From a virus (lineage: Duplodnaviria; Heunggongvirae; Uroviricota; Caudoviricetes): a stretch of DNA of 64,000 nucleotides. The stretch spans positions 1 through 64,000 of the IMG/VR virus record IMGVR_UViG_3300005326_000042. The stretch is one strand, 5' to 3'. The translations under genes were made by a program, and so were the position numbers. A model generated the notes under the pieces. The model had not been told where the DNA came from and made no database searches. It worked only from the letters and a program-made list of their open reading frames with translations. Of this stretch, positions 31,500 to 55,963 are shown one piece after another (position 1 is the stretch's first letter; every line of letters starts with the position of its first letter).

Positions 31500-31668
31500 A
31501 GATCTACTATTATCTCTCTTAATACTTATAGGTTGCGAGAGATGAAAGCATTACTTAAGTAAAAACTTAAAGTATTACTAAAGCCTTGTATGAAAGTTCT
31601 ATAAAACAACCGAAACATTTATATAGCTTGAGGTATATTTTATCTTAACTCTTTTATAGGTGAGTTGA

Positions 31669-31851
31669 ATGAGACCAATGATAAATGATGTTATGGTTTC
31701 TTTTGGTTTGTCAAACGACATAAAAACCAGAATGGAAACGCTTGCGCAGATTAAAGGATTATCCAGTTCAGCATTGATAAGAATGTTGATCCTAGAGAAA
31801 TATTCTGAAGAAATGAAGGCTGGGAATATACCCGAAGAAAAGGTGGTTTGA
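31669..31851 (+). CDS. ribbon-helix-helix (CopG-like) DNA-binding protein
   Basis: VMVSFGLSNDIKTRMETLAQIKGLSSSALIRMLI; SD AGGTGA 6 nt upstream. Confidence 0.5.
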   Translation: MRPMINDVMVSFGLSNDIKTRMETLAQIKGLSSSALIRMLILEKYSEEMKAGNIPEEKVV

Positions 31852-32544
31852 ATGAGTCGATTTCATGATGAGTTTTTCAGGAATGGAAGTCCAGCACACG
31901 ATTCTTTAATGATAAAGTGTATGTCTGAGAAAGGAATTAAGAAGATAATTGAGGAGTTGAATATAGAGAATACAGAGGTAAAACCTTTCTATGAAATATT
32001 TTGTAAGAAATCTTCAAATTACAGAAACGTTACAATATGTCAATGTGACAATTTCGAAAACAGAAAGAGGGCTTTTCTTGGCACAAAGAAGGAGTGCGAG
32101 TGGCGATGGGGTTGTGAGAATAAAAAAACGTGCGGTTTTGAAATAGAAGAACCAAAACCATATATCATTGAGGCAAGATCGATTACACATCTTTCTAAAC
32201 CAAATATATCAAAAGAAACTGAAGTTATTATTAAAAATGGAAATTTTATAATTGGATACGCGGACGGCCTAATCTCTGTTGCATATTATGCGAGTGAAGA
32301 TCTAGAGGTGGAAGAACGCCAAATAAATCATAGGAGCGATTCTATTGATTTTAAAATATTAATTGAAGTTAAACCAGAATTAACAAGTATTGGTGACACA
32401 ATTAGACAAATAAAAACCTATAAGAGTCTTTTGAGGAATAGCAATATTGTTTCGGTAATAGTAACTTATACCACTCTAGATGAGGCCGCACTAGAATATT
32501 TAAAAGGAGAAGGAATAATAGCTATCGTTTGGAAAGATAATTGA
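31852..32544 (+). CDS. zinc-finger / PD-(D/E)xK nuclease-like protein (tentative)
   Basis: Cys cluster then GYADG...D..ILIEVK resembling D-x(n)-E-x-K. Confidence 0.35.
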   Translation: MSRFHDEFFRNGSPAHDSLMIKCMSEKGIKKIIEELNIENTEVKPFYEIFCKKSSNYRNVTICQCDNFENRKRAFLGTKKECEWRWGCENKKTCGFEIEEPKPYIIEARSITHLSKPNISKETEVIIKNGNFIIGYADGLISVAYYASEDLEVEERQINHRSDSIDFKILIEVKPELTSIGDTIRQIKTYKSLLRNSNIVSVIVTYTTLDEAALEYLKGEGIIAIVWKDN

Positions 32545-32554
32545 GGTTCTTAAA

Positions 32555-35335
32555 ATGTCTGAAGAAAAGAAAATTGCAGGTGCGGCAAACACCTGCCAAG
32601 AGGATTTTATTCCTGATAATAGTGATGCTTTACAAGTAGATAAATCTTTCGGTCAAAAGGTTCCAAAGATTGAGAGACCCGCTACCGAGGAAACTATTAA
32701 ACACTACAAGAACCCCAAAGTAATGGCGGTTGTCAGAGAATTTTGCGAAGACCCAAATGGTTGGAGAGGTTGTAACGCCGGAACACATTGGTATAGATCC
32801 ACTCAAAACGGGAAAGTAAGGCTTAGGAATTTTCTAGACGATTATATAGATAGTATTGAACACAATAGAGTTCTGTATGCTACATTAGATTTCTTTGAGA
32901 AAAACTTAAAATCCAAAGACGAAGCTATTAAACCAGGAAGCAACAAACCTATACATCCAATAGGAAGTCTTGAAAATTTAATTTCTTATACTTTAACCTG
33001 TGATATTGACTTAAAAGGATCTGTAGATGATCCTTCTTCAAAACTCGCTTTAGAGTGTGCAGCACAATTTTTTGTAGACTACTTGAAAAAGCGCGGAGTT
33101 TTTAGAAGCGTATACACTCTTTTTAGTGGAAACGGCATATATATTTTAATCCACCATAATCTCTTTGCAGTAGAAAATAGAAATTATGAGCAGAGAGAAA
33201 AATTCTTTGGATCTTTAATTACAGCATATAATATGTTAATTGATAAAATTGAAACAGAGTTTTTCAAAATTCATCCAGAATATAAAGAATTAATAGCGTT
33301 TGATACTGTAAACAATAAGAAAAGAAAATTAAAATGTATTTTTAGTATTCACGCAAAGAAAAATTATGTAGTAATTCCATTAGATCCATCTAATATTAAA
33401 ATTGATTTGGAAAAAGCTAAATTACCTTTATCAGAAGAAGTAATTTTTCTTGGAGAAAAATGGTACAAAGATTTTCATCTCGGAGAAAAAGAAGTTCTCC
33501 TCTCTGTTCTAAAAGAATATATAGATTTAGACCGAAAGAGAAATTCTCACAAGAGAGGAGAGAAAGGAGAAAACGAGAAGGAATTACCTCCAAGAAGATG
33601 TGAACAACCCATTCTCACAGATGATATGCCTCCTTGTATTCAAACAATCATATCTGATCTACAACCAAAAGGTGCTACAGGAGCACTAACTTTTCTGGCA
33701 AGCTATCTATACGAAGTTGGATGGTCCGAAGAAGAGGCTTTTAAGCTCTGGAGTTCTCTAGCCGACAAGGTATGGAAGGATTACAGATACTTTGATGAAC
33801 ATTTCGGAGAACGCTGGACTCCATCTTGCGAAAAATTAAATAATGGTTTCCAATATCCCCGACCAGGAATCGGACATTACTGTAAGAAAGACAAATTCTG
33901 TAAACATTGTTCTAGACCGACAGAATATACACTGAAAGTCCCGAATTTCTCTTGGAACGATAAGGGTAATGGCGAAAGAATGGCATTTTATTTTGGAGAC
34001 ACGATAAAATATTGCGCACAATCGAGAGGATGGTATGTGTGGGATGGAAAGAAATGGTCCGCAGACGAGACGAAAGAGTTTATGAAATATGCAAAGAAGG
34101 TTGTCAGAAATATGTATAACGAGGCTTCAGAAATAGAAAACGATGATCTTAGAAAAAAGTTTGTAAAATGGATTCATTCAAAATGCGAAACTGCGGTAGG
34201 CATAAAACATATGGTAGAAATGGCAGAATCTGAGGATGAGATTTCCATTAGCCTAAAACAAATATATTCTGAATCAAAATATTTTAATCTAGAAAATGGG
34301 GTTCTGAATACAGAAAACCTAGAGATACTTCCACACGATCCATCTAGACTTATTACAATGATATCGAAGGTGGCCTACGACCCAAATGCGGATTGCCCAA
34401 GATGGAAAGAAACAATTAAATTAGTATTTGAAGAAAAAGAAAGTTTAATGAAATATTTCCAGAGAGTTTGTGGCTATATTTTAACTGGAAGACCAATTGA
34501 GCAGGCATTTTTCTTCTTATATGGAGAGAATGGAAAGAATGGAAAATCCACTTTGATGAATGCAATTCTTTATCTCATGGGAGATTATGGATTGAAAGCG
34601 GAAATTAAATCTTTCTTGGAGAGCGGAAATAACATGTCCATCAGAAACGATTTAGCTAGAATGGCAGGAAAGAGATTTGTTTGGGCATCAGAACCAGATG
34701 AAGGAAAGAAATATTCTATGGAAATTTTAAAACAAATCACAGGAAGCGAGCCTATTACTTGCCGTTTTCTTCACCAAGAATATTTTGAATATTTGCCTCA
34801 ATTCAGTCTTTTTATTTCTGCAAACAACAGACCAACCATTTCTGAAAAGAGCGATGCGGCTTGGAGAAGGGTTCAGAGCATTCCTTTTAATAAAACAATT
34901 CCAGAAGAAATGAGAGATAAAAACATAGATATATGTCTACAAGCCGAAGCTTCGGGAATTTTTAATTGGATGCTAGAGGGACTTAGAGAATATTATAAAA
35001 TCGGATTAAATTCTCCTTCAGAGGTATTAGCATCAATTAAAGAATATAAGGAAGATATGAACTCATTTGAGAACTTTATAAGAGACTGCTGCGTTACAAA
35101 AGACGCTAAATCAATTGCAATATTAAATTCTGAACTTTACGAGAACTATAAGTCATACTGTGAAGACCTCGGAATTGTTAGCAAAGATTCATTAAAATCT
35201 TTTATAAAACAGATGACTAAGCTCGAAGAAGAAGGAAAGGTTTCCCGAATTACTGTACATAAACAAACCGGATGGTTGGGGATTCACCTGAAAGATGACA
35301 TGGAGAGAAACACAATTGAAATTAGAAATCCTTAA
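32555..35335 (+). CDS. primase-helicase 1 (D5/P4-alpha-like SF3 NTPase)
   Basis: 926 aa; Walker A YGENGKNGKST, Walker B region, large N-terminal primase-like region; SD GAGGT. Confidence 0.65.
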   Translation: MSEEKKIAGAANTCQEDFIPDNSDALQVDKSFGQKVPKIERPATEETIKHYKNPKVMAVVREFCEDPNGWRGCNAGTHWYRSTQNGKVRLRNFLDDYIDSIEHNRVLYATLDFFEKNLKSKDEAIKPGSNKPIHPIGSLENLISYTLTCDIDLKGSVDDPSSKLALECAAQFFVDYLKKRGVFRSVYTLFSGNGIYILIHHNLFAVENRNYEQREKFFGSLITAYNMLIDKIETEFFKIHPEYKELIAFDTVNNKKRKLKCIFSIHAKKNYVVIPLDPSNIKIDLEKAKLPLSEEVIFLGEKWYKDFHLGEKEVLLSVLKEYIDLDRKRNSHKRGEKGENEKELPPRRCEQPILTDDMPPCIQTIISDLQPKGATGALTFLASYLYEVGWSEEEAFKLWSSLADKVWKDYRYFDEHFGERWTPSCEKLNNGFQYPRPGIGHYCKKDKFCKHCSRPTEYTLKVPNFSWNDKGNGERMAFYFGDTIKYCAQSRGWYVWDGKKWSADETKEFMKYAKKVVRNMYNEASEIENDDLRKKFVKWIHSKCETAVGIKHMVEMAESEDEISISLKQIYSESKYFNLENGVLNTENLEILPHDPSRLITMISKVAYDPNADCPRWKETIKLVFEEKESLMKYFQRVCGYILTGRPIEQAFFFLYGENGKNGKSTLMNAILYLMGDYGLKAEIKSFLESGNNMSIRNDLARMAGKRFVWASEPDEGKKYSMEILKQITGSEPITCRFLHQEYFEYLPQFSLFISANNRPTISEKSDAAWRRVQSIPFNKTIPEEMRDKNIDICLQAEASGIFNWMLEGLREYYKIGLNSPSEVLASIKEYKEDMNSFENFIRDCCVTKDAKSIAILNSELYENYKSYCEDLGIVSKDSLKSFIKQMTKLEEEGKVSRITVHKQTGWLGIHLKDDMERNTIEIRNP

Positions 35336-35379
35336 TTTCTTTTTTTTTCGATATATTTGTACTGATTAATAATAACAAT

Positions 35380-35620
35380 AAAGATTTCTTCCAACTCCCC
35401 CTTCAACTCCCCTTTTTTAAGCGCCCCGCGCATATTGAAAATTGTGAAAGGGGGAGTTGGGGAGGTAATTTTCAGTATTTTCCTATATAGTTTTTTTAAA
35501 AAATAAAATTAATACCTTCTAGATATCCCCAACTCCCCCTTCGATAGCAGGCGGCAGGGGGAGTAAAATGATCTCCCCTTTCTGCGGGCATTGTGTTACG
35601 ATTTTTAAAAATCGTAATAA
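35380..35620. promoter_or_regulatory. putative replication origin: repeats + inverted repeat + AT-rich spacer + palindrome
   Basis: CCCCAACTCCCCCTT at 35391 and 35527 (direct) and inverted at 35448-35462; AT-rich 35484-35515; palindrome ACGATTTTTAAAAATCGT 35599-35616. Confidence 0.45.
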
Positions 35621-35696
35621 TGGCCTACTGATATTGAATTATAATTCGCCGCAAATCTCACACCATTAATCATTACAAATCCCACCAATAAAAAAA

Positions 35697-35933
35697 TTAA
35701 ACCCACACATCCGTCCTAAATTCAACCCTAGTGTCGCAACCAGAAAGTAAAGTTAGCCCAACTGAATCCACGATGTCCAAAACTGATTCTGTATTGAAGT
35801 TAAACAAACTTGATATCCTGGTATGAATTATCAGGTACGCAAAAGGAGATCTGGTGTTTCTATCCTCTCGATACCTCACCAAAATATTTTCCATATCGTC
35901 TTCAAGAAAAGGGATGATTACTTCTTCGCGCAT
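35697..35933 (-). CDS. hypothetical protein
   Basis: Track ORF. Confidence 0.4.
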   Translation of the reverse strand: MREEVIIPFLEDDMENILVRYREDRNTRSPFAYLIIHTRISSLFNFNTESVLDIVDSVGLTLLSGCDTRVEFRTDVWV

Positions 35934-35934
35934 A

Positions 35935-36375
35935 CTAATCCCTAAACCTACACTCCTCTTTCGTCATCAAACACTCTTTCCTCGACCCGTCGCAAACAAA
36001 TCCCACAATCCCATTAGTAATTTTCACAATATACTCAGGCGGAATCATAACACCATCTCCATACCAATAATATGGGAGATGGAGATCAATGGAATCTTTA
36101 ACCTTCCTATCCAAGGTTGTTTGACCTTTGTTCTCTAATAGGTCTTTATATGTTGCATAAAGAACATGTCTAAATTCTCTACAGGAAAGTTCGGGCATTT
36201 CATGGATTATTTGAATAATGGTAAGAGCCAATGGTTTATAATACTCTGGTATCTCTTGAAACCTATCCATTACTTCTTCCTGAGATAACTTTCCAGCAGT
36301 ACTCCAAAACTCCTCTGGTCTGGATAATTCTAACCAGTTATAACCTTCTTCCTGATCTGTGAGATAATCGAACAT
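35935..36375 (-). CDS. hypothetical protein
   Basis: Track ORF. Confidence 0.4.
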   Translation of the reverse strand: MFDYLTDQEEGYNWLELSRPEEFWSTAGKLSQEEVMDRFQEIPEYYKPLALTIIQIIHEMPELSCREFRHVLYATYKDLLENKGQTTLDRKVKDSIDLHLPYYWYGDGVMIPPEYIVKITNGIVGFVCDGSRKECLMTKEECRFRD

Positions 36376-36539
36376 AATTTATCACACCAAGGATGCTCCT
36401 CTTTTTCAAACAATTTTCCGTCTGGTCCGCAGATGCCTCCAACCTCTCTTGCTGATTTACAAAATTGTCGTGTAAAAGACCCATCTATCGGATCGGGACC
36501 AGATTCTGTTTTCCACAGTAATGGTTGTAAGACATCCAA
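36330..36539 (-). CDS. hypothetical Cys-containing protein
   Basis: Overlaps previous by 46 nt. Confidence 0.3.
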   Translation of the reverse strand: MDVLQPLLWKTESGPDPIDGSFTRQFCKSAREVGGICGPDGKLFEKEEHPWCDKLCSIISQIRKKVITG

Positions 36540-36751
36540 TACCCATGATTTTTGCAGTGAATGCAGATTTTTGTCATTTCTTTTTCATCTCCTTCTCAAC
36601 CAAGTTCCTTCCATAGGATCTGGTCTTTCAATTGGCCGCAGACCAGATGTCCCATGTCTAAATGGCGATTTTGGCTCGTCTGCTACATGATTTTTGATTC
36701 TACAAATGCCATCAGCTATGACGTAAGATACGGCTAATGCGAATAAATATC

Positions 36752-36964
36752 CTAACATTCTGATTCCTTCCCAACCTCTACTATCCCATACCCCAGATTC
36801 TTAACTTTCAAATTAACCAGATTTCCTTTAAAAATAATAGAATCTTGCCCGCGAAGAAGCAATTCTCCCCACTCCTTAGATGTCATTCTCTGTTTAAAGT
36901 CTTCTTGGGTCCAATGATTAGGGTGAAGTTGAATCACACTCTCACCATTTCCTGTCCACAACAC
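36752..36964 (-). CDS. hypothetical protein
   Basis: Track ORF. Confidence 0.35.
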   Translation of the reverse strand: MLWTGNGESVIQLHPNHWTQEDFKQRMTSKEWGELLLRGQDSIIFKGNLVNLKVKNLGYGIVEVGKESEC

Positions 36965-37152
36965 GTATACGGATGCACAGGTAATCTATCCAAAGGTACA
37001 GGGAGTCCAGATGGGAATCCATTTTGAGTTATATCCCATTTCTCTTCAGTGACTTCTTGCTCCCATCCACAAATTTTACATTTGAGTTTCATCACCATCT
37101 CTCCTTCCAAGCCTTTAAATTCCACTTCAAAATCTTCTTCATTAAACTCCAA
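36934..37152 (-). CDS. hypothetical zinc-ribbon protein
   Basis: CKICG...CCGQE; overlaps neighbours. Confidence 0.3.
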   Translation of the reverse strand: MEFNEEDFEVEFKGLEGEMVMKLKCKICGWEQEVTEEKWDITQNGFPSGLPVPLDRLPVHPYTCCGQEMVRV

Positions 37153-37481
37153 CTCATCAGTCCTTCAGGAAAATCTTTCTTCCATAAATAACTACATCCT
37201 CCACGTAAACAAACTTCAGATATTTCGTCCTCCATGTATCCAATCTCTTTTAAACCTTCGTCCAAGAAGTTCTGGAGTTTATAACCATCTACGAGTTCAT
37301 GCCCTATAATGTGGCCTCGCGATGGAGAATCGTACTCGAATGTGAGTTCTTCAGGATTAATTTGATATTTTTCTAAAATTAAACTTACATCTGCCTCAAA
37401 CTCTTCTTTGGTTTTGGTGGGATGCAGATAGTCTTTAGGACTATATGATTCCCAATCAGAAACTGAAATACGAAAGATCAT
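37092..37481 (-). CDS. hypothetical protein
   Basis: Track ORF. Confidence 0.4.
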   Translation of the reverse strand: MIFRISVSDWESYSPKDYLHPTKTKEEFEADVSLILEKYQINPEELTFEYDSPSRGHIIGHELVDGYKLQNFLDEGLKEIGYMEDEISEVCLRGGCSYLWKKDFPEGLMSWSLMKKILKWNLKAWKERW

Positions 37482-37903
37482 TCATATCCCTCAAGTAACA
37501 TCTCTGTCATAGCTACATGTTCTTCCAGTTCTTTTCTAAAGTTGTTATCCAAATTCGGCGTAGTTAAAATAAGTTTCACAAGCGTAACTTGATTTCTAAG
37601 AGCTTTGGCTAGAGCTTTAGTTAAGCCCTCCTTCTCCTGCCGCGCGGATTCTAAGTCTTGTTTAAGTAGTTCTATGGCGTTATCTTTAACCTGCAATAAC
37701 GTTTCGGTGTCTTGATTTCTATAGTCTTGTTCCCATCCAGATTTCCAAGATTCGATTTCTTCTTCCATCTCCTTATATTCCATCAACAAATGTTCTGTGT
37801 AATTTGTCAAAGCCCAAATATCTAACATCTTTATATCAGAAGATTTTGTGTGCTTAATTTGGGTAACGTGGTCTTCTATGTTTTTAATGTCTTCAGAATT
37901 CAT
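37478..37903 (-). CDS. coiled-coil hypothetical protein
   Basis: Heptad-rich. Confidence 0.4.
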   Translation of the reverse strand: MNSEDIKNIEDHVTQIKHTKSSDIKMLDIWALTNYTEHLLMEYKEMEEEIESWKSGWEQDYRNQDTETLLQVKDNAIELLKQDLESARQEKEGLTKALAKALRNQVTLVKLILTTPNLDNNFRKELEEHVAMTEMLLEGYE

Positions 37904-38190
37904 TTTGTATCCTCCAAAATCCTACTTAATGTTATAATAGCCCTATTTTCAGAGTTTCCTTTAAATGGATTATTCTTAAAAGTTTCAATTACGTATCTAA
38001 GAACTTCTCTATCTCCATCAAATAGAATAACTGGTTTGCCGCCGCACCAATCTTTCACAAAATCCTCAAGATGTTCTCCAGCCATCATTTGCCATCCCAA
38101 CTCGCGTTGATCTTCGGGTTCTTCTAACATAGATGTTAGTTTTCTATTCCATTCTTTTAATTGGTCGAAGTTCACTCTTTCCACCACCAA
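37900..38190 (-). CDS. hypothetical protein
   Basis: Track ORF. Confidence 0.4.
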   Translation of the reverse strand: MVVERVNFDQLKEWNRKLTSMLEEPEDQRELGWQMMAGEHLEDFVKDWCGGKPVILFDGDREVLRYVIETFKNNPFKGNSENRAIITLSRILEDTK

Positions 38191-38292
38191 GGAGTATATT
38201 CTTCAGATTTAACTTTCCTTTTTGATAAAGAATTGATATTCTCAAGAGACTGGAGAATATTAATTATAGGAATTGTGGAGTCGAAGTTCATG

Positions 38293-38667
38293 TTAATCTC
38301 CTTTCTTCGCCATCCTAAATTCTCGGTCGCACTCTCCACCTAATTCCTCTGCATCATTTATCAATTTGTCAATAGCTTTTATTTTCGCTGCCAACCTCTT
38401 GTGTAATCTTATTAAATCTGGATTCTTTTCTGCGCAAGATTTACAGAATTGAGTGTGATGACTTGTTAGAGGTTCCCGACCCCCATCGTCGTATGTAATA
38501 TACTCGCTTTCATCATTAAACCCAATTATTTCCTCTCTACAGGAATGACAAGCAAACTTCCCGCAGATAGCACAGTATCTGTTTCCCCAATGTTCTACTT
38601 CTTTTTCCTTGCAGAAATCACAGATTTCTATGTCCTTGGTGGTTGTAATTGTTATTTGTTGTTTCAT
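38293..38667 (-). CDS. zinc-finger hypothetical protein
   Basis: CDFC...CAICG..CHSC...CKSC. Confidence 0.4.
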   Translation of the reverse strand: MKQQITITTTKDIEICDFCKEKEVEHWGNRYCAICGKFACHSCREEIIGFNDESEYITYDDGGREPLTSHHTQFCKSCAEKNPDLIRLHKRLAAKIKAIDKLINDAEELGGECDREFRMAKKGD

Positions 38668-38669
38668 TT

Positions 38670-38954
38670 CTATTTCTCCTCCACCTTCAAAACCCCACTA
38701 TCCTTTCCAGCAAGTGTATCTGAACTAATCGCGCGGAGGATAGGAGCGGTTTGTGAATCGTTATTGATATCTTCAGAAATAAATCTGTACCCTAGTCTGG
38801 AGTCATATACGACTGTCGGACTTCCATTTTCGTAGTGATAGATAGTTAGAGTGTTGGTTTCTTGTGTAATTTCTCCTTGGATTTGCCAAGATAAGAATCC
38901 TATCCAGAGAAACAGAATCATTAGTGCCGCGAGAGCGATGTAATTTTGTTTCAT
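38670..38954 (-). CDS. membrane-anchored hypothetical protein
   Basis: N-terminal TM/signal anchor. Confidence 0.4.
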   Translation of the reverse strand: MKQNYIALAALMILFLWIGFLSWQIQGEITQETNTLTIYHYENGSPTVVYDSRLGYRFISEDINNDSQTAPILRAISSDTLAGKDSGVLKVEEK

Positions 38955-39208
38955 GAAGATTCCTTTTCCAACTTCTTTTCTGCTTTTAACATCCTTGTTA
39001 CGATAATTGTAAATTCTTTCTCAAATTCGCCCCATGATCCATCTTTAGTGGCATATCCAAAACATCTTCCAATCTCTAACCAATGTCGAAGATAATCTTC
39101 AGGTTTGGCTTCTTTGTGGCGAATTCCAGTATCGATCAAATTTTCAATTGCGCCCCAATCGCCTTCTTTGGCAGCGGCTTCTAGTTTTGCTTTTATGGTT
39201 ATGGGCAT
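38951..39208 (-). CDS. hypothetical protein
   Basis: Track ORF. Confidence 0.4.
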   Translation of the reverse strand: MPITIKAKLEAAAKEGDWGAIENLIDTGIRHKEAKPEDYLRHWLEIGRCFGYATKDGSWGEFEKEFTIIVTRMLKAEKKLEKESS

Positions 39209-39641
39209 AATATCTCCTTATCCGACATCGTATTTATAGTTAACGCTAGGACGCTAAAATACTCCTTATCTTCTGTAAGCGATATCTATAATTGGTGTTA
39301 CCATTTTAATCAACTAAGACCTTTTAGAACAAAATAGATATTTATTCAGGATCATCGTCTTCTAATTCGTCTAATCTTCTATTTAGTTTAAAAATTACAT
39401 ATCCGATTCCTAATATGGCTATACTCTGAATCATATCAACAAACTGCTCAGGTGTCATTAAATACTTATTACTTGGTATAGTATTTATATTTACTGTTAA
39501 GGCGACTTAGAAATAAATTACAAAAGATAAAAATAGACTATCGCTTTTCTAATTTCCGAAGTCTAATTCTTGTATCCATGAGTAGATATATGATTCCAAG
39601 CGATATAAAAGTCTGCATCATGTCAAGAAATTGTTGGAAAG

Positions 39642-39980
39642 TCATTCTTTTGTTGCCTCCTCGTTTTCTGTTTCGAACAACATGTAATGAAGTTCGCCCG
39701 CGATGTTACATTTTACGTTGGAATCTCTGTTTACGGAATAATAGTCGTAACCTTCTTCAATACAAAATTTCTTGTCCTCTTCAGAATAGTCTGGAGCTAG
39801 GATGAAAGGAGGCGAGCATAGCGAATTTCCGTCTATCATAACTAAGATTGAGTGAGCCAGTCCATATAGTTTCTCTTTCTCAGTTCTGTCATGGACTTGA
39901 TCGGACCAGAATTCACATAGATTTCTCAGGTTTTGCAGGAATTCGTCTCTTACTTGTTCCATATTCAATTCGTGTGACAT
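39642..39980 (-). CDS. hypothetical protein
   Basis: Track ORF. Confidence 0.4.
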   Translation of the reverse strand: MSHELNMEQVRDEFLQNLRNLCEFWSDQVHDRTEKEKLYGLAHSILVMIDGNSLCSPPFILAPDYSEEDKKFCIEEGYDYYSVNRDSNVKCNIAGELHYMLFETENEEATKE

Positions 39981-40005
39981 AATTTAGTATTATATGGGAA
40001 AGTAT

Positions 40006-40875
40006 TTAAGCCTTTCTAAGTTTGTGACTTTTTCTTATAGCTTCTCCCTTTCTACTACAATTACAGTTTGCACATTCAAGTCTATAATCCTCTTTTAAAG
40101 ATTCGGGCCAGCCTTGTTGACGAAAATTGGAGAGCAATGCCGTACTATTGCGCTCTCCATTTCTTCTCCGCTCCGCGCCATCGTTATGTATGTGAGAGAT
40201 AGTTAAAAATTTTAATTCCGTTATTCCACATGGACAACCACCAAAGAATTCAAAAGCTTCTTTCCAGAGTTTAGCTGAGTATCTTTGATTTTTAGTTTGC
40301 AATTCCCAAGGTAAATCCAAATATTCCCTTCTTCTCGCCAAATTATGATTCCAACATAAAACTCTCAGATTAGATAATTTATCTTTCGGATAAGTATCAT
40401 TAGTAACGGCTAGACGTAAGGAATGTCCACTATATCCCTTCTTCTTGTCGATATATCCTGTCTCATCGATATGGTCTACGGTTAAATAATCGGGATTAGT
40501 CACATTACAAAGAGAACATTTACAGCCACCCAAGATTTCAAGTACTTGAATTTTATTTTCTTCGCGATATTTTTTATGGTGTTCTTTTATTTTATCTTTA
40601 TTTTCATTATAATACCTTTTCCCGTATTCTTTATTATGTTCTTTATTTTCCTTATAATACTTTTTTCCACATTCTTTCCTGTGCTCTTTATTTTCTTCAC
40701 GATATTTTATATCGTATTCTTTTTTGTGTTCTTTGTAGTTTGGATTATCCCAATTAGATATCGTTTGTTGACACACTCCACATTCCTTAGCTATTTCTCC
40801 CTGACTTTTCCCAAAAACATTAATTTGGAGATCCAACCATTCTTTATTTTGATAAATAGGTTTTTCTTCACTCAC
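40006..40875 (-). CDS. HTH + double HNH-motif endonuclease, paralog 1
   Basis: N-terminal KEWLDLQ...IAKECGVCQQTISNW HTH; K/E/Y repeats; GGCKCSLC...VDHID...LRVLCWNHN and GGCPCG...ISHIHND...ECANCN; GTG start after AGGAGGT. Confidence 0.6.
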   Translation of the reverse strand: MSEEKPIYQNKEWLDLQINVFGKSQGEIAKECGVCQQTISNWDNPNYKEHKKEYDIKYREENKEHRKECGKKYYKENKEHNKEYGKRYYNENKDKIKEHHKKYREENKIQVLEILGGCKCSLCNVTNPDYLTVDHIDETGYIDKKKGYSGHSLRLAVTNDTYPKDKLSNLRVLCWNHNLARRREYLDLPWELQTKNQRYSAKLWKEAFEFFGGCPCGITELKFLTISHIHNDGAERRRNGERNSTALLSNFRQQGWPESLKEDYRLECANCNCSRKGEAIRKSHKLRKA

Positions 40876-41029
40876 TTTTTGACCTCCTCTTAATATCTTC
40901 CTTGATTAATCCCCTTAGAAGAGCGGAAGCGGAAGTCTCATCGTCGTCAGCCATGTTTTCTAACTCATCTTTTAAATGTTTAGAGAGTTTGAAAATAAAA
41001 GTAGCTGTTTCTTTGTCAAGTTGTTTCAT
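40868..41029 (-). CDS. ribbon-helix-helix protein coupled to HNH paralog 1
   Basis: 53 aa, TFIFKLSKHLKDELENMADDDETSASALLRGLI; stop overlaps HNH start; below track cutoff. Confidence 0.45.
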   Translation of the reverse strand: MKQLDKETATFIFKLSKHLKDELENMADDDETSASALLRGLIKEDIKRRSKSE

Positions 41030-41303
41030 ATTAAACACCATATATAAAATTTGTAGTTATAATATAATAATTATTAATATTTAAATCTTTCGGTTGAATT
41101 TAATTTTATTCAATTAATTTTTTTAAAAACAAACTTAAATTTGCCTTTAGACAGTTAAATCAGAATTTAAAAGCGAGGTTCATAACGCGATCCAACCGCG
41201 CTAATTCCCTCGCCATGCGCATATGATCGGCATCCCATTTAAGGCTTGCTATCCGCGCCTTGGTGAGGCAACGTTCCAACTATAATATCTGTGAGGTCTC
41301 ACC

Positions 41304-42125
41304 ATGACAAATAAAGCTTTACTTGCGGGAATCAATGCCTATATGCAATCTCCGCTTAGAGGTTGCATCAACGATGTACTTGATGTAGAGAACTATTTAC
41401 TAGGAAAGAATTTCCAGTGTACCAAACTTCTCGACTCTTCCGCCACCAAACCCAATATTCTAAATGGACTTAACACACTTATAAACGGAAGCCACGCAGG
41501 AGATGTATTGGTGTGGTATTTTAGCGGCCACGGATCTTACATTTTAGATAATAATGGAGATGAAACAGACGATCAATATGATGAGTGCTTGATTTCTTAT
41601 GACTACTTCACAAACGGAAATTTCATTCGTGATGATGATTTAGCTGAAATATTTACAAGAATTCCAGAAGGAGTTTTAGTTGAGTGTATCCATGACTCCT
41701 GCTTTTCAGGAGATTCCACAAAACTATTTAATGATCTAAATTCAAATACCCGTTTTGTAGATATCGATACTAATTCTATAGATTTAAAATCTTCTGCTTC
41801 AAAATATATTCCTATCCAGCTTTCTAGACCTAAAAAGAAAGTTGTGAAAATTGGAAGGATAGGACATAAAGTCAGTAATATTACCATGAACCACATCTTA
41901 TCAAGCGCCTGTGGTGAAACTCAGACTTCAAGCGAGGTTCGGGTAAACGGTCAATATCGCGGAATTTTTACATACCTGCTTACAAGAAGACTCAGACTTT
42001 CTCCAACTATGAGCCGATCTGGAGTAATAAGTAATGTTCGAGCAAACCTTGCTGCACTAGGGTTGTCACAAATACCTATGTTAGAGTGTATCGATAGTGA
42101 AAAATTAGAGCCTTATTTCTCATAA
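41304..42125 (+). CDS. caspase-like cysteine peptidase (peptidase C14 / metacaspase family)
   Basis: Catalytic His in VLVWYFSGHGS and catalytic Cys in IHDSCFSGDS in caspase order (His before Cys); N-terminal KALLAGINAY; SD GAGGT. Confidence 0.65.
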   Translation: MTNKALLAGINAYMQSPLRGCINDVLDVENYLLGKNFQCTKLLDSSATKPNILNGLNTLINGSHAGDVLVWYFSGHGSYILDNNGDETDDQYDECLISYDYFTNGNFIRDDDLAEIFTRIPEGVLVECIHDSCFSGDSTKLFNDLNSNTRFVDIDTNSIDLKSSASKYIPIQLSRPKKKVVKIGRIGHKVSNITMNHILSSACGETQTSSEVRVNGQYRGIFTYLLTRRLRLSPTMSRSGVISNVRANLAALGLSQIPMLECIDSEKLEPYFS

Positions 42126-42142
42126 TTTTTTGAGGTTTTCCT

Positions 42143-42514
42143 ATGCAAGACTCAGAGGCTCGGATTTTGACCGCTATTGGCGAGTTGAAGACTGATATTC
42201 AGAATATAAAGGATGATTTGGACGAACTAAAAACGTTCAAGGACGAACTACAACGGACCCAACAATCATTTATAGATTATAAAGAAACTAGAAAAGATCT
42301 TCCGAAACAAATTTCTGATCTGAAGGAGAAAGTTACGGTTTGCCAAACAAATTGTATTAATGAGTCCAAGGTGTTTGAACAAGTTTGTAAAGAGGTTAAA
42401 TTCCTAATGGGATGGTATAAAACAGGAACAGGAGTCGTTATATCCGTGAATGTTCTTGTTGCTGTTTTAGTTCTCGTTTCTAAATATATTGATATTTCTA
42501 AATTATTTTCGTGA
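42143..42514 (+). CDS. coiled-coil protein with C-terminal TM anchor
   Basis: Heptad N-terminus, C-terminal GVVISVNVLVAVLVLV. Confidence 0.45.
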   Translation: MQDSEARILTAIGELKTDIQNIKDDLDELKTFKDELQRTQQSFIDYKETRKDLPKQISDLKEKVTVCQTNCINESKVFEQVCKEVKFLMGWYKTGTGVVISVNVLVAVLVLVSKYIDISKLFS

Positions 42515-42523
42515 GGGATTGAG

Positions 42524-42940
42524 ATGGATATTTCATTTTTAGCTGCTGTTATACTGTTCTTACTGGCTTCCGCTCTGGTTGCTTGGTATCTGGCTTCATA
42601 TAAGAGATTGTCTGTAATTCTAAAATTCCTCCTCATCACTCCTTTTATTCTCGGTTTTGCAATAGCTCAAGATGAGATCGAAGAAGGGCTTTTTGTAGAC
42701 GATCTTACGGGAATAGAAGTCACAGAAGACGACAAACCTCTCATCCTCAATCCCGATATTTTAACAAAATCCGCAGAAGCAATTAATAACGCGGTAGAAT
42801 CTGTAATTAAACTTCCAGAAATCATCCCAGACGGTTTATCTCAGGAACTTCAAATTCAGGAAAAGAATAGAGTCTTTTTGTTAGATAATACCTTGAATTT
42901 CACACCAAGAAATAACACTACGGAGTTGATTGTGGTTTGA
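42524..42940 (+). CDS. membrane protein with two N-terminal TM helices
   Basis: MDISFLAAVILFLLASALVAWYL and LLITPFILGFAIA. Confidence 0.45.
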   Translation: MDISFLAAVILFLLASALVAWYLASYKRLSVILKFLLITPFILGFAIAQDEIEEGLFVDDLTGIEVTEDDKPLILNPDILTKSAEAINNAVESVIKLPEIIPDGLSQELQIQEKNRVFLLDNTLNFTPRNNTTELIVV

Positions 42941-43107
42941 ATTCTGACGAAGAGCCGTTGGTTTGTAGAAAATGTTTTTGCAGGTTTTCTTGTGGGGAGA
43001 GGTGTGAGAAAGCAAAAGAAGTTAATTTTATCTAATTAATTTTTTTAAATTACTTTGTTAATATAGACAACTTCTAAACTATACTCTTTACAAGGAGAAT
43101 TGTTTGT

Positions 43108-43749
43108 ATGGCTAAATTATATAATGCTCCGTTTCAAGGTCCGAGGTACACGCTTCACGGACCTTTGGCGTCTCGTCCTACTACTGCCAAGGAAGAGACA
43201 TATTTTCACGATACTACGAATAATGAATGGTACTACTATACTTCGTCTGCTTGGAATAAAATAGGAAAATCTGACGTTCTCCTTAAAGACGGAACAATTG
43301 GATTAACCGCAGATTGGGACGCTGGATCTATAGATATCCAGGCAGAAACTTTTACTTCAGATGTTCCAATCGGAACCGCGCCTCTCACCGTTACCTCTAC
43401 CACAAAAGTTACCAATTTAAATTCTGATCAGGTCGATGGTTCAGACCTGTCAGATCTCCTTGCAAAAGAAGAGACGCCGTATTTAGGAAGAGGAACAAAT
43501 TATCAAATAACTGCGGGAGATTATATTATCGCGGTTACTTGTGTTGGAACAGATATTGATGTCACTCTTCCAAACCCGACCCTCAAGAAGACGGTGATTA
43601 TCAAAAAGCTAGATAGTACGTCTCATGCTGTTAACATTGAAGCCTACGACGGAGAAAACATTGAGGACAGCGCTACCGATCTTATTCTGACTCACCAGTA
43701 CGACTCTGTGACTCTTTCCAGTAACGGAATTAATTGGTTTATTGTTTAG
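43108..43749 (+). CDS. tail fibre / baseplate-associated protein
   Basis: Thr/Ser/Gly-rich beta-type composition, precedes fibre module; SD AAGGAG. Confidence 0.45.
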   Translation: MAKLYNAPFQGPRYTLHGPLASRPTTAKEETYFHDTTNNEWYYYTSSAWNKIGKSDVLLKDGTIGLTADWDAGSIDIQAETFTSDVPIGTAPLTVTSTTKVTNLNSDQVDGSDLSDLLAKEETPYLGRGTNYQITAGDYIIAVTCVGTDIDVTLPNPTLKKTVIIKKLDSTSHAVNIEAYDGENIEDSATDLILTHQYDSVTLSSNGINWFIV

Positions 43750-43759
43750 GTGATTTAAT

Positions 43760-44224
43760 ATGACTTATTTTGGTTTATTGAAAGGAAAGACCGTCCTCGG
43801 AGTCGTAAAAGAATGGCTCATGGACGATGACGGTCATGGGCAGGTGGATGTGGTGTCCACAGCAGCGCCAGCCACCCTACCTTTGCCCACAGGCGCGGCT
43901 ACGGAATCGACTTTGGCGGCGATGAACGGGAAGCTCGGTGCTCTCAGCAGAACTCCCCGCTCGGGTCAGCAAACGGTAGCCGCAGCGGGAACAGAAGTCG
44001 CTCTAGGTGCATCCCAAGTCTATAGGGAAGTTACAGTGATTGCCAACAGCGACAACACCGGAAACATCTATATTGGTAACGACGGGACTGATCATGTATC
44101 AAGTACCACGGGCGGCAAGCTTCCAGCGGGCGGATTTGCCACTTTCCACAATGTAGATATCTCTAAGATATTTGTAGATGTTGCGGTCTCCGGCGAAGGT
44201 GTCTCCTGGTTTGGTGAGATTTGA
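43760..44224 (+). CDS. fibre-associated structural protein, paralog A
   Basis: GQQTVAAAGTEVALG...VTVIANSDNTGNIYIGNDGTD...GEGVSWFGEI; paralogous to 44473..44865. Confidence 0.5.
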   Translation: MTYFGLLKGKTVLGVVKEWLMDDDGHGQVDVVSTAAPATLPLPTGAATESTLAAMNGKLGALSRTPRSGQQTVAAAGTEVALGASQVYREVTVIANSDNTGNIYIGNDGTDHVSSTTGGKLPAGGFATFHNVDISKIFVDVAVSGEGVSWFGEI

Positions 44225-44472
44225 TGTTCGGCCAGCATCACTGCTCAAAATGTGGCCTAAAATATAACAATGCGTCAGTAGACGGGCGAGATTACACTTA
44301 CACCTGCAAGAACTGCTGCCAAGTTGAAACCTTCCACATGGATGGTACTAGCACCACATTCGACTGCCCGATATGCGCGAAGACTGCATTGAATGCAAAT
44401 TTCGCGCCCAATAACGTGAACAGGAAGATGGATTTCTCGGATAAATATAACTCAATGTATCGGGTGATTTGA
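44221..44472 (+). CDS. zinc-finger small protein between fibre paralogs
   Basis: CSKCG...CKNCC...CPICAKT. Confidence 0.4.
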   Translation: MMFGQHHCSKCGLKYNNASVDGRDYTYTCKNCCQVETFHMDGTSTTFDCPICAKTALNANFAPNNVNRKMDFSDKYNSMYRVI

Positions 44473-44865
44473 ATGGCAGATAGCAATTTGAAGATTCTGA
44501 ATGCGGATGAAGATCCGAAATGGCAGAAGGTGAAGGGGGCGCAAACGGAGGGAGATCCCGGATCGCCGTACGTGTGCCTGGATGGGAGCAATACCCCGAA
44601 GAGTGGACAGAAAGCAGTGGCATCAGCAGGTACTGCGGAAGCCCTGGGAACGACCCAAGTATTCAAGCGGGTTACAGTGGTTGCCAATGCCGATAATACA
44701 GGAGATGTGTATGTTGGCAATGACGGTGCTGACGATGTCAGCAGCATCACGGGAATAATCTTACCCCCGGGCGGCTGGTTCGACTGGTTCTTTGTGGATA
44801 TCGCTGATCTCTATGTAGATGCTGAAGTATCTACTGAAGGCGTGTCTTATGGGGGAGAAATATGA
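44473..44865 (+). CDS. fibre-associated structural protein, paralog B
   Basis: GQKAVASAGTAEALG...VTVVANADNTGDVYVGNDGAD...TEGVSYGGEI. Confidence 0.5.
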   Translation: MADSNLKILNADEDPKWQKVKGAQTEGDPGSPYVCLDGSNTPKSGQKAVASAGTAEALGTTQVFKRVTVVANADNTGDVYVGNDGADDVSSITGIILPPGGWFDWFFVDIADLYVDAEVSTEGVSYGGEI

Positions 44866-50725: not shown

Positions 50726-51538
50726 TTATACTACATATTTTTTACTAAGGTTGCAGTTAGCACATTCTAATCTGTAATCTTCTTTCAGAGTTTCGGGCCA
50801 ACCTTGTTGGTAGAATCTTTCTAATAATCTGATTCCAGTCTTTTCTCCGTTTTTTCTTTGCTCCGCCCCATCGTTGTGAATGTGGGAGATTGTTAAAAAT
50901 TTTAGTTCTGATATTCCACAAGGGCAAGGACCGAAGAAATCAAATGCCATCTTCCAAAATTTAGTTTGTCGTCTTTGTTGTCTTGTCTGGAGGGTGGGTG
51001 GAAAATCTAAATATTCTTTTGTCCTTCCAAGATTATGATTATAACACAATACCCTTAAATTAGATAATTTTTCTTGTGGATAAATCTTATTTAAAATTGC
51101 AGAATATAAAGATATACTATATAATCCGTCTTTCCTATCTAGGTGTCCTGTTTTATCGATATGATCTATTGACAGAAAGTCCACGTTGGTCACATCACAA
51201 AGACTACATTTACAGCCTCCAAGAACATTTAATACCTGAATCTTTATGTTTTTTCGATATTCTTTTACTTTATATTTATTTTTTTCTTTCTGTTCTTTTA
51301 TTTTTTCTCTATTTTCTTTATAATAACTTTCTTGATATTCTTTTATTTTATGCTTGTTTTCTTCCCGATATTCTTTTTGTCTTTTTCTATTGTGTTCATC
51401 GCTCCAATAAGATATTGTAGACTTACCCACTCCACACTCTTTTGCAACTTGTCTTTGGTTCTTTTTCAAAACATTTAATTGATAATCCAACCATTCTTTA
51501 TCTCGATAAAGAGGTTCTTCTTTCTTAAAACCACTCAT
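50726..51538 (-). CDS. HTH + double HNH-motif endonuclease, paralog 2
   Basis: Same architecture as 40006..40875 (KEWLDYQ...VAKECGV...TISYW; LRVLCYNHN; ECANCN). Confidence 0.6.
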   Translation of the reverse strand: MSGFKKEEPLYRDKEWLDYQLNVLKKNQRQVAKECGVGKSTISYWSDEHNRKRQKEYREENKHKIKEYQESYYKENREKIKEQKEKNKYKVKEYRKNIKIQVLNVLGGCKCSLCDVTNVDFLSIDHIDKTGHLDRKDGLYSISLYSAILNKIYPQEKLSNLRVLCYNHNLGRTKEYLDFPPTLQTRQQRRQTKFWKMAFDFFGPCPCGISELKFLTISHIHNDGAEQRKNGEKTGIRLLERFYQQGWPETLKEDYRLECANCNLSKKYVV

Positions 51539-55786: not shown

Positions 55787-55963
55787 TCAACTCTTATCAA
55801 ACATTTCCTCCATTGGAATTTCTACAGGGGCCCAATCTTTCTGTCCTTCAAGTTTATAATATCCTACAAAAGACAACTCCTGTAATTCATTTTCTTTAAA
55901 ATGTGCTTTAATTCCTATATCTTCACTGAAGATGATGGTAACGTATCCGTACATAGATATCAT
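55787..55963 (-). CDS. hypothetical protein
   Basis: Track ORF trimmed to internal ATG so it does not translate the tRNA. Confidence 0.35.
   Translation of the reverse strand: MISMYGYVTIIFSEDIGIKAHFKENELQELSFVGYYKLEGQKDWAPVEIPMEEMFDKS

Follow-up and report, generated by a model that had tools for sequence, protein, structure and literature searches.

A probable iteron-type replication origin directly downstream of a P4-family primase-helicase gene in an uncultivated, probably archaeal virus

The 365-bp gap at positions 35336-35700 of the analyzed window (the whole stretch of viral DNA, 64 kb in length) is probably the cis-acting, iteron-type replication origin of the P4-family primase-helicase that is encoded directly upstream. 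Several traits of a SaPI/P4-type origin were found together at this locus: a locus-specific repeat cluster that is unique in the window, opposed iterons around an AT-rich centre, a position directly 3' of the presumed initiator gene, an adjoining protein with P4-family/D5_N and SF3 domains and a matching predicted fold, and the same order of gene and iterons in relatives. The preliminary description had placed a putative replication origin here. An origin-like cis element serving the upstream primase-helicase is supported by the protein family, by a survey of relatives and by the published layouts of SaPIs and pRN1. Together with the arrangement of motif copies and AT tract and the precedent of P4, this makes a cognate iteron-type origin the most likely function of the gap. 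Thus, a specific pair of origin and initiator is proposed for an uncultivated, probably archaeal, virus. As the mechanism is already known from SaPIs, P4 and pRN1, the finding will not surprise a specialist; the origin is credible but ordinary for a well-known protein family.

Repeat architecture of the gap

The gap is situated between convergent open reading frames, the primase-helicase gene on the plus strand and an ORF of 78 amino acids on the minus strand (35697-35933). The latter is not called in an identical public contig, so that the gap possibly measures up to 599 bp. The following features were located in it:

35340-35348, plus strand: run of nine T, 5 nt past the TAA stop of the primase-helicase gene
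35355-35370, plus strand: left copy ATTTGTAMTGATTAAT of an outer 16-nt inverted repeat that frames the element
35392-35415, plus strand: iterons 1 and 2, CAACTCCCCCTT and CAACTCCCCTTT, tandem direct copies 12 bp apart
35404-35415, plus strand: iteron 2 itself, CAACTCCCCTTT, a tandem copy missing from the preliminary description
35421-35431: small G+C-rich dyad GCGCCCCGCGC between the iteron sets, tip of the predicted 35391-35403/35448-35460 hairpin
35448-35466, minus strand: iteron 3, the reverse complement of CAACTCCCCCTT (35448-35459), with an overlapping core GGGGAG (35459-35464)
35467-35520: AT-rich tract between opposed iterons, presumed DNA-unwinding element
35526-35541, plus strand: iteron 4, TCCC-CAACTCCCCCTT, right arm of a perfect 16-bp inverted repeat
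35555-35582: dyad of degenerate iterons, ACTCCCCCTG (35555-35564, minus strand) and GATCTCCCCTTT (approximately 35570-35581, plus strand)
35596-35617: perfect 22-nt AT-rich palindrome TTACGATTTTTAAAAATCGTAA (z = -4.2 in the fold test)
35665-35680, minus strand: right copy ATTTGTAATGATTAAT of the outer inverted repeat
35690-35696, minus strand: run of seven T next to the stop of the 78-aa ORF

Four copies of the motif (C)AACTCCCC(C)TT are present, together with three copies of its core CTCCCC alone; all seven are located in 35392-35582, in both orientations. Their order is + + - -, AT tract, + - +, and iteron 1 starts 57 nt past the stop codon of the primase-helicase gene (35333-35335). With up to one mismatch allowed, CAACTCCCCCTT has four matches in 64 kb, all of them in 35392-35541, where 0.27 matches would be expected and none of 100 shuffled sequences contained four. 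This bears on the question raised before of whether the motif is scattered through the genome: in the 64-kb window the 12-mer was not found elsewhere, and no second cluster was detected. The core CTCCCC/GGGGAG has 24 copies in the window, and seven of these fall in the 365-bp gap (approximately 0.1 expected, Poisson p ~1.5e-11).

The repeats reported previously are real apart from small slips in coordinates and sequence. The 15-mer described as a direct repeat, CCCCAACTCCCCCTT, is exact at 35527-35541, whereas its first copy at 35389-35403 reads TTCCAACTCCCCCTT and carries two mismatches at the 5' end; the exact direct repeat common to both copies is CCAACTCCCCCTTC (35391-35404 and 35529-35542). 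The inverted copy at 35448-35462, AAGGGGGAGTTGGGG, was read correctly, and the perfect 13-bp stem that it had been proposed to form is present (35391-35403/35448-35460). Iteron 3 is also the left arm of a longer, perfect 16-bp inverted repeat (35448-35463/35526-35541), which flanks the AT tract and had been overlooked, with the 13-bp pairing with iteron 1 as an alternative. Core copies beyond those described before are GGGGAG at 35459, ACTCCCCCTG (35555-35564, minus strand) and CTCCCCTTT at 35573. The dyad of degenerate iterons (35555-35582) is predicted to form a DNA hairpin of -10.6 kcal/mol.

The AT-rich tract noticed earlier is genuine. When GC content was determined per 20 bp, 35476-35515 contained only 10% GC, and the tract ranks approximately seventh among the least stable 60-bp duplex windows of the 64 kb (99.8th percentile). 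Bracketed as it is by the perfect inverted iteron pair, this tract of about 10% GC resembles an unwinding element as found in SaPI origins (PMC9371898). The palindrome ACGATTTTTAAAAATCGT was likewise confirmed, although its position, 35598-35615, is shifted by one base from that given before. It is the inner part of the perfect 22-nt palindrome at 35596-35617, which could either bind a dimeric protein or provide another point that melts easily.

The outer 16-nt inverted repeat would also be compatible with a mobile insertion, MITE-like or other, with ATTTGTAMTGATTAAT at its ends, as the pair at 35355-35370 and 35665-35680 frames the element and is unique in the window (two copies, 0.38 expected). 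However, the framing repeat is marginal, with two copies reached in six of 100 shuffled sequences, the 64 kb contain no further copies of such an element, and a target-site duplication was not noticed. An exact 28-mer from the gap is absent from IMG/VR. An insertion of this kind is therefore regarded as very improbable.

The gap was also analyzed for transcription signals. The T9 run is likely an oligo-T transcription stop of the archaeal type for the operon, a function assigned from its sequence and position, and the T7 run is likely the corresponding oligo-T stop of the 78-aa ORF. The convergent position is one where transcription-stop signals are expected. Folding is predicted to be strong on both strands (z = -5.3 and -4.7), and the arm at 35448 can pair with either the iteron 1 arm or the iteron 4 arm in mutually exclusive predicted hairpins. 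These properties would suit an element acting at the transcript level, either a bidirectional terminator or 3'-UTR structure of the convergent genes or a gene for a small structured non-coding RNA. Yet the two T runs already supply oligo-T stops, and a terminator of the hairpin-plus-T kind (short G+C-rich stem, loop of 3-8 nt, T run) was not found on either strand of 35000-36200. No Rfam 15 model matched at its gathering threshold, and in E-value mode (E <= 10) the best matches, to generic hairpin models, scored no more than 24 bits, where the gathering scores are 51 or higher. The gap also lacks a TATA-like promoter word on either strand. Seven copies of one word would be needless for a terminator, and clusters of mixed orientation with lineage-specific words throughout the protein family would be left unexplained. 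For these reasons a transcript-level element has only a slim chance of accounting for the gap. A promoter scan by sigma-70 rules gave nothing useful; these rules are probably inapplicable here.

The cumulative GC skew of the 64-kb window, suggested before as a check on the origin, reaches a local maximum at the gap and decides neither way. The switches of the skew, at about 30, 35, 42 and 59 kb, coincide with changes in gene orientation. The skew follows the coding strand, and thus an origin cannot be located by GC skew in this window. Repeat-dense spots at 18.3-18.9 kb (in an ORF with NUMOD3), 40.3-40.9 kb and 51.0-51.6 kb were considered as origins and rejected, as their repeats are coding.

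The primase-helicase and its operon

Three ORFs on the plus strand lie upstream of the gap:

31669-31851, plus strand: ORF of 60 amino acids, possible ribbon-helix-helix (RHH, CopG/RelB-like) regulator, first gene of the replication operon
31852-32544, plus strand: ORF of 230 amino acids between the RHH-like gene and the primase-helicase gene
32555-35335, plus strand: primase-helicase of 926 amino acids, chimeric, presumed initiator

Judged by its domains, the primase-helicase is an initiator-type enzyme of the P4 family, with D5_N, an SF3 helicase and a C-terminal domain. It passes the NCBIfam model TIGR01613 ('phage/plasmid primase, P4 family') with 250.5 bits against a cut-off of 108.7. In Pfam, D5_N (2.7e-26), DUF5906 (2.2e-10) and Pox_D5 (6e-5) all exceed their cut-offs, and DNA_primase_lrg was matched at 8.6e-7. 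The two halves differ in their relationships. The N-terminal half (approximately residues 1-460) contains a PriL-like region and shares 33-44% identity with sequences from Methanothrix/Methanotrichaceae, whereas the C-terminal half (approximately residues 461-926), which harbors D5_N, the SF3 helicase and a Pox_D5-type C-terminal domain, is 35-46% identical to P4-family primases. A Foldseek search with an AF2 model (pLDDT 89) retrieved the PrimPol of ASFV, the PriRep of SaPI5 (7ola, E ~1e-17, TM ~0.6, matched by the predicted fold of the C-terminal half) and E5 of MPXV, while sequence searches of the PDB with the protein and with its last 126 residues gave nothing significant. Residues 398-452 of the model, where the Pox_D5 match lies, are predicted to form a helix, a second helix and a beta-hairpin. 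By predicted secondary structure and position, rather than by a fold match at the domain level, the C-terminal domain looks winged-helix-like.

We infer the following course of binding, melting, priming and initiation at the gap. The winged-helix-like C-terminal domain would recognize the iterons as sites of 11-12 bp, and protomers bound at the opposed sites would assemble into SF3 hexamers on both flanks of the approximately 50-bp AT tract, which would be melted. The 13- and 16-bp inverted repeats could extrude as hairpins and possibly aid melting. The N-terminal part, a primase of the archaeo-eukaryotic type, would then prime the exposed strands, and host or viral polymerases would continue synthesis.

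The labels given previously to the other two ORFs fared less well. For the 60-aa ORF, the RHH assignment is favored by a match to PHROG 7325 (CopG-like, E = 2.3e-5), but the score against Pfam DUF6290 (18.9 bits) is under the cut-off of 27, and matches to RelB antitoxin models (E ~4e-3) are also under the cut-off, so that the call is weak. The ORF is preceded by an archaeal-type BRE/TATA-like sequence, AAACATTTATATAG, and an AGGTGA ribosome-binding site. The 230-aa ORF had been called a nuclease, a label that neither Pfam (even at E <= 10) nor PHROGs nor NCBIfam supported.

An RHH-like gene at the head of the operon and a 22-nt palindrome that resembles a dimer-binding site raise the question of whether the repeats serve a DNA-binding protein other than the primase-helicase, as its operators in the case of the RHH-like protein, as a partition site resembling a centromere or as a packaging (pac) site. 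Iteron arrays are known in partition and packaging sites too. However, the motif is missing from the promoter region of the operon (31500-31669), where an autoregulator would act. Among the ORFs scanned, no ParA/ParB-like or terminase gene adjoins the gap, and the nearest weak match to a small terminase is 4.3 kb away. Furthermore, the conserved linkage of such clusters is specifically with the P4-type helicase half. An array for another protein is thus considered improbable, and the repeats are discussed further as probable binding sites of the primase-helicase.

Related loci and known replicons

The downstream regions of related genes were surveyed at 81 loci. The 300 bp past the stop codon hold the top cluster of repeated G/C-containing 7-mers of their locus, usually in mixed orientation (median percentile 0.98), and 62% of the loci are at or above the 95th percentile. 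At least four copies occur in 26 of 41 downstream gaps (63%), compared with one of 68 other intergenic gaps (1.5%). The corresponding Mann-Whitney test gives p = 1e-16, a value inflated by the phylogenetic dependence among the loci. The downstream gaps use twenty different words, which are lineage-specific. A clear downstream cluster is lacking in about one quarter to one third of the relatives. By the same score, the gap of the present virus is at the 99.8th percentile of the 64 kb. As a positive control, the score was applied to the P4 genome, where its two highest windows are the annotated crr and ori. As a control for specificity, Methanothrix relatives that share only the N-terminal primase half and possess other C-terminal halves show no downstream cluster. 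In phi105 and at the loci L126 and L128, inverted iterons surround AT-rich centres directly 3' of the gene. Iterons clustered at the 3' end of the gene or shortly after it are thus a family-wide feature, seen in the 81 loci, two archaeal viruses that were checked and P4. Pairs of loci with a common iteron word have more similar C-terminal domains (0.86 versus 0.67 at a core identity of at least 0.9). This suggests, without going further, that similarity of the C-terminal domain may track the iteron word when helicase-core identity is matched.

The survey suggests a rule of thumb, by which the strongest repeat cluster of mixed orientation would be the replication cis element if it lies at the 3' end of a P4-family primase-helicase gene or just past it. 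It held in many bacterial prophages and in the two archaeal viruses checked, and aids the annotation of viral contigs. Origins of Streptococcus thermophilus phages reportedly also lie downstream of the primase gene.

A close published layout is that of the SaPIs, where 6-12 iterons lie directly downstream of rep and enclose an AT-rich centre, with two or more on each flank, oppositely directed, and where Rep binds the ori through its C-terminal WHD (PMC9371898). The present locus shares the position directly past the ORF of an initiator-helicase and the opposed short iterons flanking an AT-rich centre (PMC9371898). The SaPI initiator is a self-loading SF3 helicase that is fused to or paired with a primase and carries a C-terminal DNA-binding domain (PMC9371898), and the fold match to SaPI5 PriRep agrees with this likeness. 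Differences also occur. The iterons described here are 11-12 bp long with a CTCCCC core, whereas SaPIs have penta- or hexanucleotides. The present protein is only about 13-15% identical to PriRep5, its primase half is of the archaeal AEP/PriL-like type and related to Methanothrix, and the virus-like genome measures at least 64 kb, compared with 15 kb for the satellite.

P4 is linked to this system by TIGR01613, which the present protein passes, and by an iteron cluster, + + - - +, right after the terminator of alpha, compared with + + - -, AT tract, + - + here. In contrast to the PriL-like, archaeal-type N-terminal half described above, alpha has a bacterial Toprim primase. P4 possesses two clusters, ori and crr, whereas the window contains one. 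The downstream cluster of P4 is a pair of 120-bp direct repeats, and its record annotates no AT-rich centre. According to this record the cluster directly 3' of alpha, with its type-1 repeats, is crr, a required helper site, and initiation takes place at ori (rep_origin 9086-9809), 4.5 kb from crr. This precedent indicates that iterons right behind the gene can act as a helper element instead of the initiation site. By analogy, the primase-helicase might bind the iterons and need the gap in cis while replication starts at a second cluster elsewhere, and the window is a part of the genome, so that such a cluster may lie outside it. Within the 64 kb, however, there is no second cluster of the motif, and a centre of about 10% GC enclosed by a perfect inverted iteron pair is the layout that an initiation site should have, as in SaPIs (PMC9371898). 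A crr-like helper role is therefore considered fairly unlikely, and initiation at the gap itself remains the favored reading.

The replicon of pRN1, which comprises orf56 (CopG) and orf904 and carries its origin 3' of orf904 (PMC4234260, PMC3869888), offers a parallel in the archaeal domain, to which its host belongs. There, and presumably here, a small RHH-type protein is followed by a protein with primase, SF3 helicase and winged-helix parts and then by a structured origin (PMC4234260, PMC3869888). The helicase half of the present protein is, however, of the P4/D5_N lineage, and an extra ORF of 230 amino acids separates the RHH-like gene from the primase-helicase gene. The pRN1 origin is a single stem-loop of approximately 100 nt without iterons (PMC4234260). 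An origin of this type was rejected for the gap, where folding yields arms of 13 and 16 bp with large loops of 44 and 62 nt, together with iterons, but no continuous 100-nt hairpin. An origin of the archaeal chromosomal type, with ORB elements and orc1/cdc6, was also rejected, since none of 34 ORFs scanned, neighbors included, matched Orc1/Cdc6.

The best homologues of the C-terminal half in bacterial viruses are gp40 of phi105 and other P4-family primases of Bacillus prophages (approximately 37% identity). In phi105 the gene is followed by a 268-bp gap, in which two inverted copies of TGTTACTTTTGTTACT, a perfect pair at a distance of 82 nt, enclose an AT-rich palindrome, and further copies occur. 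The Bacillus systems have another iteron sequence, another host and a different N-terminal primase domain (NrS1-1_pol-like_HBD type). Among archaeal tailed viruses, Methanoculleus virus L4768 (same locus as Blf4) and Methanosarcinales virus vir515 encode primase/helicases with 31-33% identity, and dense clusters of inverted repeats are located at or just after the 3' end of these genes (TATGCCCCAAA/TTTGGGGCAT in L4768, TCTCAGGTAG/CTACCTGAGA in vir515). In contrast to the present virus, their clusters overlap annotated coding sequences (in L4768 gp60, in vir515 the primase CDS at its 3' end) and do not lie in a clean gap, and the iteron sequences are unrelated to those described here.

Host assignment and a possible cross-domain cassette

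Database searches placed the virus apart from known sequences. A protein search of IMG/VR gave no close relatives, a scan of IMG/VR with a 14-mer of the motif returned single chance matches only, and a search of JGI metagenomes by protein yielded a single distant match. An exact protein look-up retrieved one contig, which is identical to positions 32063-44899 of the window. A simple scan for TATA words in front of the genes did not discriminate between host domains. From its genes, the element is probably a Methanothrix-associated archaeal virus: association with methanogens is suggested by the kinship of the N-terminal primase half with Methanothrix sequences, by an NrdD whose nearest counterpart is from a Methanobacterium virus and by an intron-like insert in a tRNA-like gene.

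The chimeric nature of the primase-helicase permits a further, tentative interpretation, which we rate as possible but rather doubtful. The helicase/winged-helix half, of the bacterial-phage P4/SaPI-like type, and its cognate iteron origin may have been fused to an archaeal primase/PriL-like half of the Methanothrix type, and this cross-domain cassette, a replicon complete in itself, may drive the replication of a large virus of methanogens of the Methanotrichaceae. If this were true, the block of approximately 4 kb at 31669-35700 would constitute a ready-made minimal replicon for archaea that are now without genetic tools.

Iteron cluster behind the primase-helicase gene

The gap at 35336-35700 sits between convergent ORFs. 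Both sequence reading and repeat and motif searches located in it, 3' of a large plus-strand ORF, a dense, locus-specific cluster of one motif (best form (C)AACTCCCC(C)TT), in agreement with a preliminary description that had reported repeats after the primase-helicase gene.

Motif copies in the gap and the adjoining ORF
35392-35403, +, near-full copy
35404-35415, +, near-full copy with one mismatch, in tandem
35448-35459, -, near-full copy
35459-35464, -, degenerate or core-only copy
35530-35541, +, near-full copy
35555-35564, -, degenerate or core-only copy
about 35570-35581, +, degenerate or core-only copy
35697-35933, -, 78-aa ORF, its end abutting a T7 run

Allowing a single mismatch at most, four 12-mer copies are present in 64 kb (0.27 expected), a count reached in 0 of 100 shuffles. 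Every copy falls in the cluster, so that the proposed search for the motif elsewhere found it confined to this gap. The core hexamer is similarly concentrated, with 7 of its 24 copies in the window lying within 365 bp (Poisson p about 1.5e-11). The direct 15-mer repeat of the preliminary description is present, with a first copy that differs at two 5' bases; the tandem second copy and a stronger inverted repeat had been overlooked. The latter is a perfect 16-bp pair (35448-35463 / 35526-35541) bracketing an AT tract. The AT-rich spacer described earlier is real, with 10% GC over 35476-35515, and is about the seventh least stable of all 60-bp duplex segments in the 64 kb. An AT-rich palindrome had also been recognized; it starts at 35598 rather than 35599 and extends to a perfect 22-mer (35596-35617).

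As single strands, the arms near 35391 and 35448 form the 13-bp stem suggested before, which folds far better than shuffles (z = -3.7), and the arms near 35448 and 35526 form a 16-bp hairpin (z = -5.2). A function of the region as a transcript-level element is nevertheless judged quite improbable. No hairpin-type terminator was found around the gap, and no Rfam family matched within it. The iteron region is framed by an outer 16-nt inverted repeat, ATTTGTAMTGATTAAT, at 35355-35370 (+) and 35665-35680 (-), which has only these two copies in 64 kb; insertion of a MITE-like element is considered very remote. Each ATTTGTAMTGATTAAT copy lies just inside the T-run that trails a flanking stop codon.

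A T9 run comes after the primase-helicase gene, whose last base is 35335. On the other side, the 78-aa ORF starts one base past the stop codon of the minus-strand gene that precedes it. Whether this ORF is coding is uncertain: it is uncalled in the identical public (ENA) contig, and the non-coding gap may therefore be 599 bp.

A chimeric, presumed initiator and known replication systems

The 926-aa product of the primase-helicase gene contains D5_N, DUF5906 (SF3 helicase) and Pox_D5 domains and a PriL-like stretch, and passed NCBIfam TIGR01613 ('phage/plasmid primase, P4 family') with 250.5 bits versus a cut-off of 108.7. Judged by sequence comparison, the protein is a domain chimera. Residues 1-460 share 33-44% identity with Methanothrix/Methanotrichaceae-associated proteins that carry other C-terminal halves, and residues 461-926 share 35-46% with hundreds of P4-family primases, of which many belong to Bacillus prophages such as phi105; the C-terminal half is nearest to metagenomic and Bacillus-prophage proteins. 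An AlphaFold2 model of this half, based on a 30-sequence alignment, was confident (pLDDT 89) and matched the folds of ASFV PrimPol, mpox E5 and the SaPI5 primase-helicase (7ola, E about 1e-17, TM about 0.6). Its last approximately 70 residues are predicted to form two helices and a beta-hairpin, at the position where SaPI Rep harbors its iteron-reading winged helix (PMC9371898).

The SaPI ori is located directly downstream of rep and comprises 6-12 iterons with an AT-rich centre and at least two iterons per side in opposite directions; the iterons are bound by the C-terminal WHD of a self-loading helicase, and SaPI5 has a primase-helicase fusion (PMC9371898). In P4, according to the GenBank annotation, crr comes immediately after the alpha gene terminator and is a replication region required in cis, with type-1 iterons in both orientations; ori is positioned 4.5 kb from crr. 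The iteron region resembles a SaPI or P4 origin in anatomy, in agreement with every sequence-level criterion that could be tested. We consider that 35392-35582 is probably an iteron-type origin cognate to the neighbouring primase-helicase, with the AT tract (35467-35520) as putative unwinding element. A helper site like crr, separate from ori, would be an unlikely alternative. The origin interpretation of the preliminary description is supported by family layout, protein family and known systems, but neither its label 'nuclease' for the gene before the primase-helicase nor the GC-skew test was supported.

The pRN1 minimal replicon consists of orf56 (CopG-like), orf904, which encodes primase, SF3 helicase and winged helix, and a stem-loop origin located shortly past the 3' end of orf904 (PMC4234260; PMC3869888). 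Comparable structures downstream of related phage genes were pointed out in the same work (PMC4234260). The iteron region does not fit a stem-loop origin of the pRN1 type, an Orc1/ORB origin, an intrinsic terminator or any Rfam family.

Repeat clusters at related loci

No close relative of the virus was present in the collections searched, and the recurrence of the layout across the protein family was therefore assessed. The set comprised 80 IMG/VR loci with relatives of the C-terminal half, phi105 and three metagenomic/genomic contigs; 81 loci with enough downstream sequence were scored. The score of each 300-bp segment was the copy number of its most repeated non-AT 7-mer, counted over both orientations and without overlaps. 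As a positive control, this score placed the annotated crr and ori as the top two segments of the P4 genome. Mostly, the segment directly after the stop codon scored highest, or nearly so, within its locus (median percentile 0.98; at least the 95th percentile in 62% of the 81 loci), and the gap studied here reached the 99.8th percentile of the 64 kb. Four or more copies occurred in 26 of 41 downstream gaps versus 1 of 68 intergenic gaps of 150 bp or longer elsewhere in these loci (Mann-Whitney p = 1e-16, which overstates independence because the loci are related to one another).

Even so, twenty different words are repeated in the downstream clusters. The anatomy recurs at single loci. In phi105, a perfect inverted pair of TGTTACTTTTGTTACT flanks an AT-rich palindrome; one related locus (L126) has two GTTGTGAAGG copies succeeded by CCTTCAC, also twice, in inverted orientation, and another (L128) has AGTTACTTAC copies around an AT-rich dyad. 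The Methanothrix relatives, which share the N-terminal primase half only, served as specificity control. In none of them was the best cluster downstream of the gene, which indicates that it is the P4-type helicase half that the repeats accompany. Correspondingly, an array bound by some other protein has a low probability. Locus pairs with a common iteron word have more similar C-terminal domains at matched helicase-core identity, a pattern that fits iteron reading by this domain but is only suggestive.

Methanoculleus virus L4768, the same locus as Blf4, and Methanosarcinales vir515 have dense inverted clusters located where the primase gene ends or a short distance past its 3' end. In L4768 (locus L124, 4373-4650; NC_074642.1, about 35818-36095), a very dense array of repeats, direct as well as inverted (TATGCCCCAAA / TTTGGGGCAT, GGGCAGGAA), immediately follows the primase/helicase gene and overlaps the annotated 'hypothetical protein' gp60; this array is probably the L4768 origin, instead of or besides a gene. 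In Caudoviricetes sp. vir515 (locus L123, 5716-5990; BK063672.1), the 'DNA primase' CDS as annotated contains, at its 3' end, eight TCTCAGGTAG / CTACCTGAGA copies in both orientations. This CDS either is annotated too long or has the origin lying inside it.

Virus genome and probable host

The window appears to derive from a large virus genome. Its gene products include NrdD, thymidylate synthase, dCTP deaminase, ATP-dependent DNA ligase, a SNF2 helicase, two RNA-ligase-family proteins, a beta-helix tail-fibre-like protein, a NUMOD3 homing-endonuclease-like protein and a second Prim-Pol primase.

Further features of the window
17650-18969, -, 439-aa homing-endonuclease-like ORF with seven NUMOD3 motifs
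41304-42125, +, caspase-like Peptidase_C14 domain protein (precomputed Pfam match)
55963-56076, -, tRNA-like gene (Rfam RF00005, 30.9 bits; gathering score 29)
59184-61643, +, second primase, unrelated to the first (Prim-Pol, DnaG-type zinc ribbon, P-loop)

The host is likely, though not proven, to be archaeal (a methanogen). Hints are the mostly Methanothrix/Methanotrichaceae contigs matching the N-terminal half of the primase-helicase, a Methanosarcinales virus as best virus match spanning this half, Methanobacterium virus PhiF1 as best viral NrdD match, a PTH2-type peptidyl-tRNA hydrolase gene, and AAACATTTATATAG plus AGGTGA ahead of the replication operon. The tRNA-like gene, not detected by ARAGORN, has 49 nt in place of the 7-nt anticodon loop of the model. 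This stretch looks like an intron, in keeping with a virus-borne tRNA gene of the archaeal, intron-containing type. The probable archaeal host and the chimeric initiator make the system of interest, and the block from RHH-like gene through primase-helicase to putative ori might be used as a minimal replicon.

A 23-nt, 87% inverted repeat in an AT-rich region upstream of the second primase (59045-59102) looks like an operator, and a 15-mer tandem, TTTAAATCCAAAACC / TTAAATACCAAAACC, lies at 61656-61685, 13 nt past the stop codon of this gene. The other repeat-dense spots of the window are explained by two AT-rich ORFs with lysine/glutamate-rich internal repeats (40006-40875 and 50726-51538, both -), one of which contains a 45-nt tandem of 4.1 copies (40552-40734). 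Weak HTH/HNH-like matches were found for the ORF at 40006-40875, and both may be homing-endonuclease-like genes. The NUMOD3 ORF adjoins the ATP-dependent DNA ligase gene (16681-17646). Between 43000 and 49000, G+C rises from about 36% to 43-50%; this block, which includes the beta-helix, tail-fibre-like ORF (44862-47039), may be a recently acquired or host-range module.
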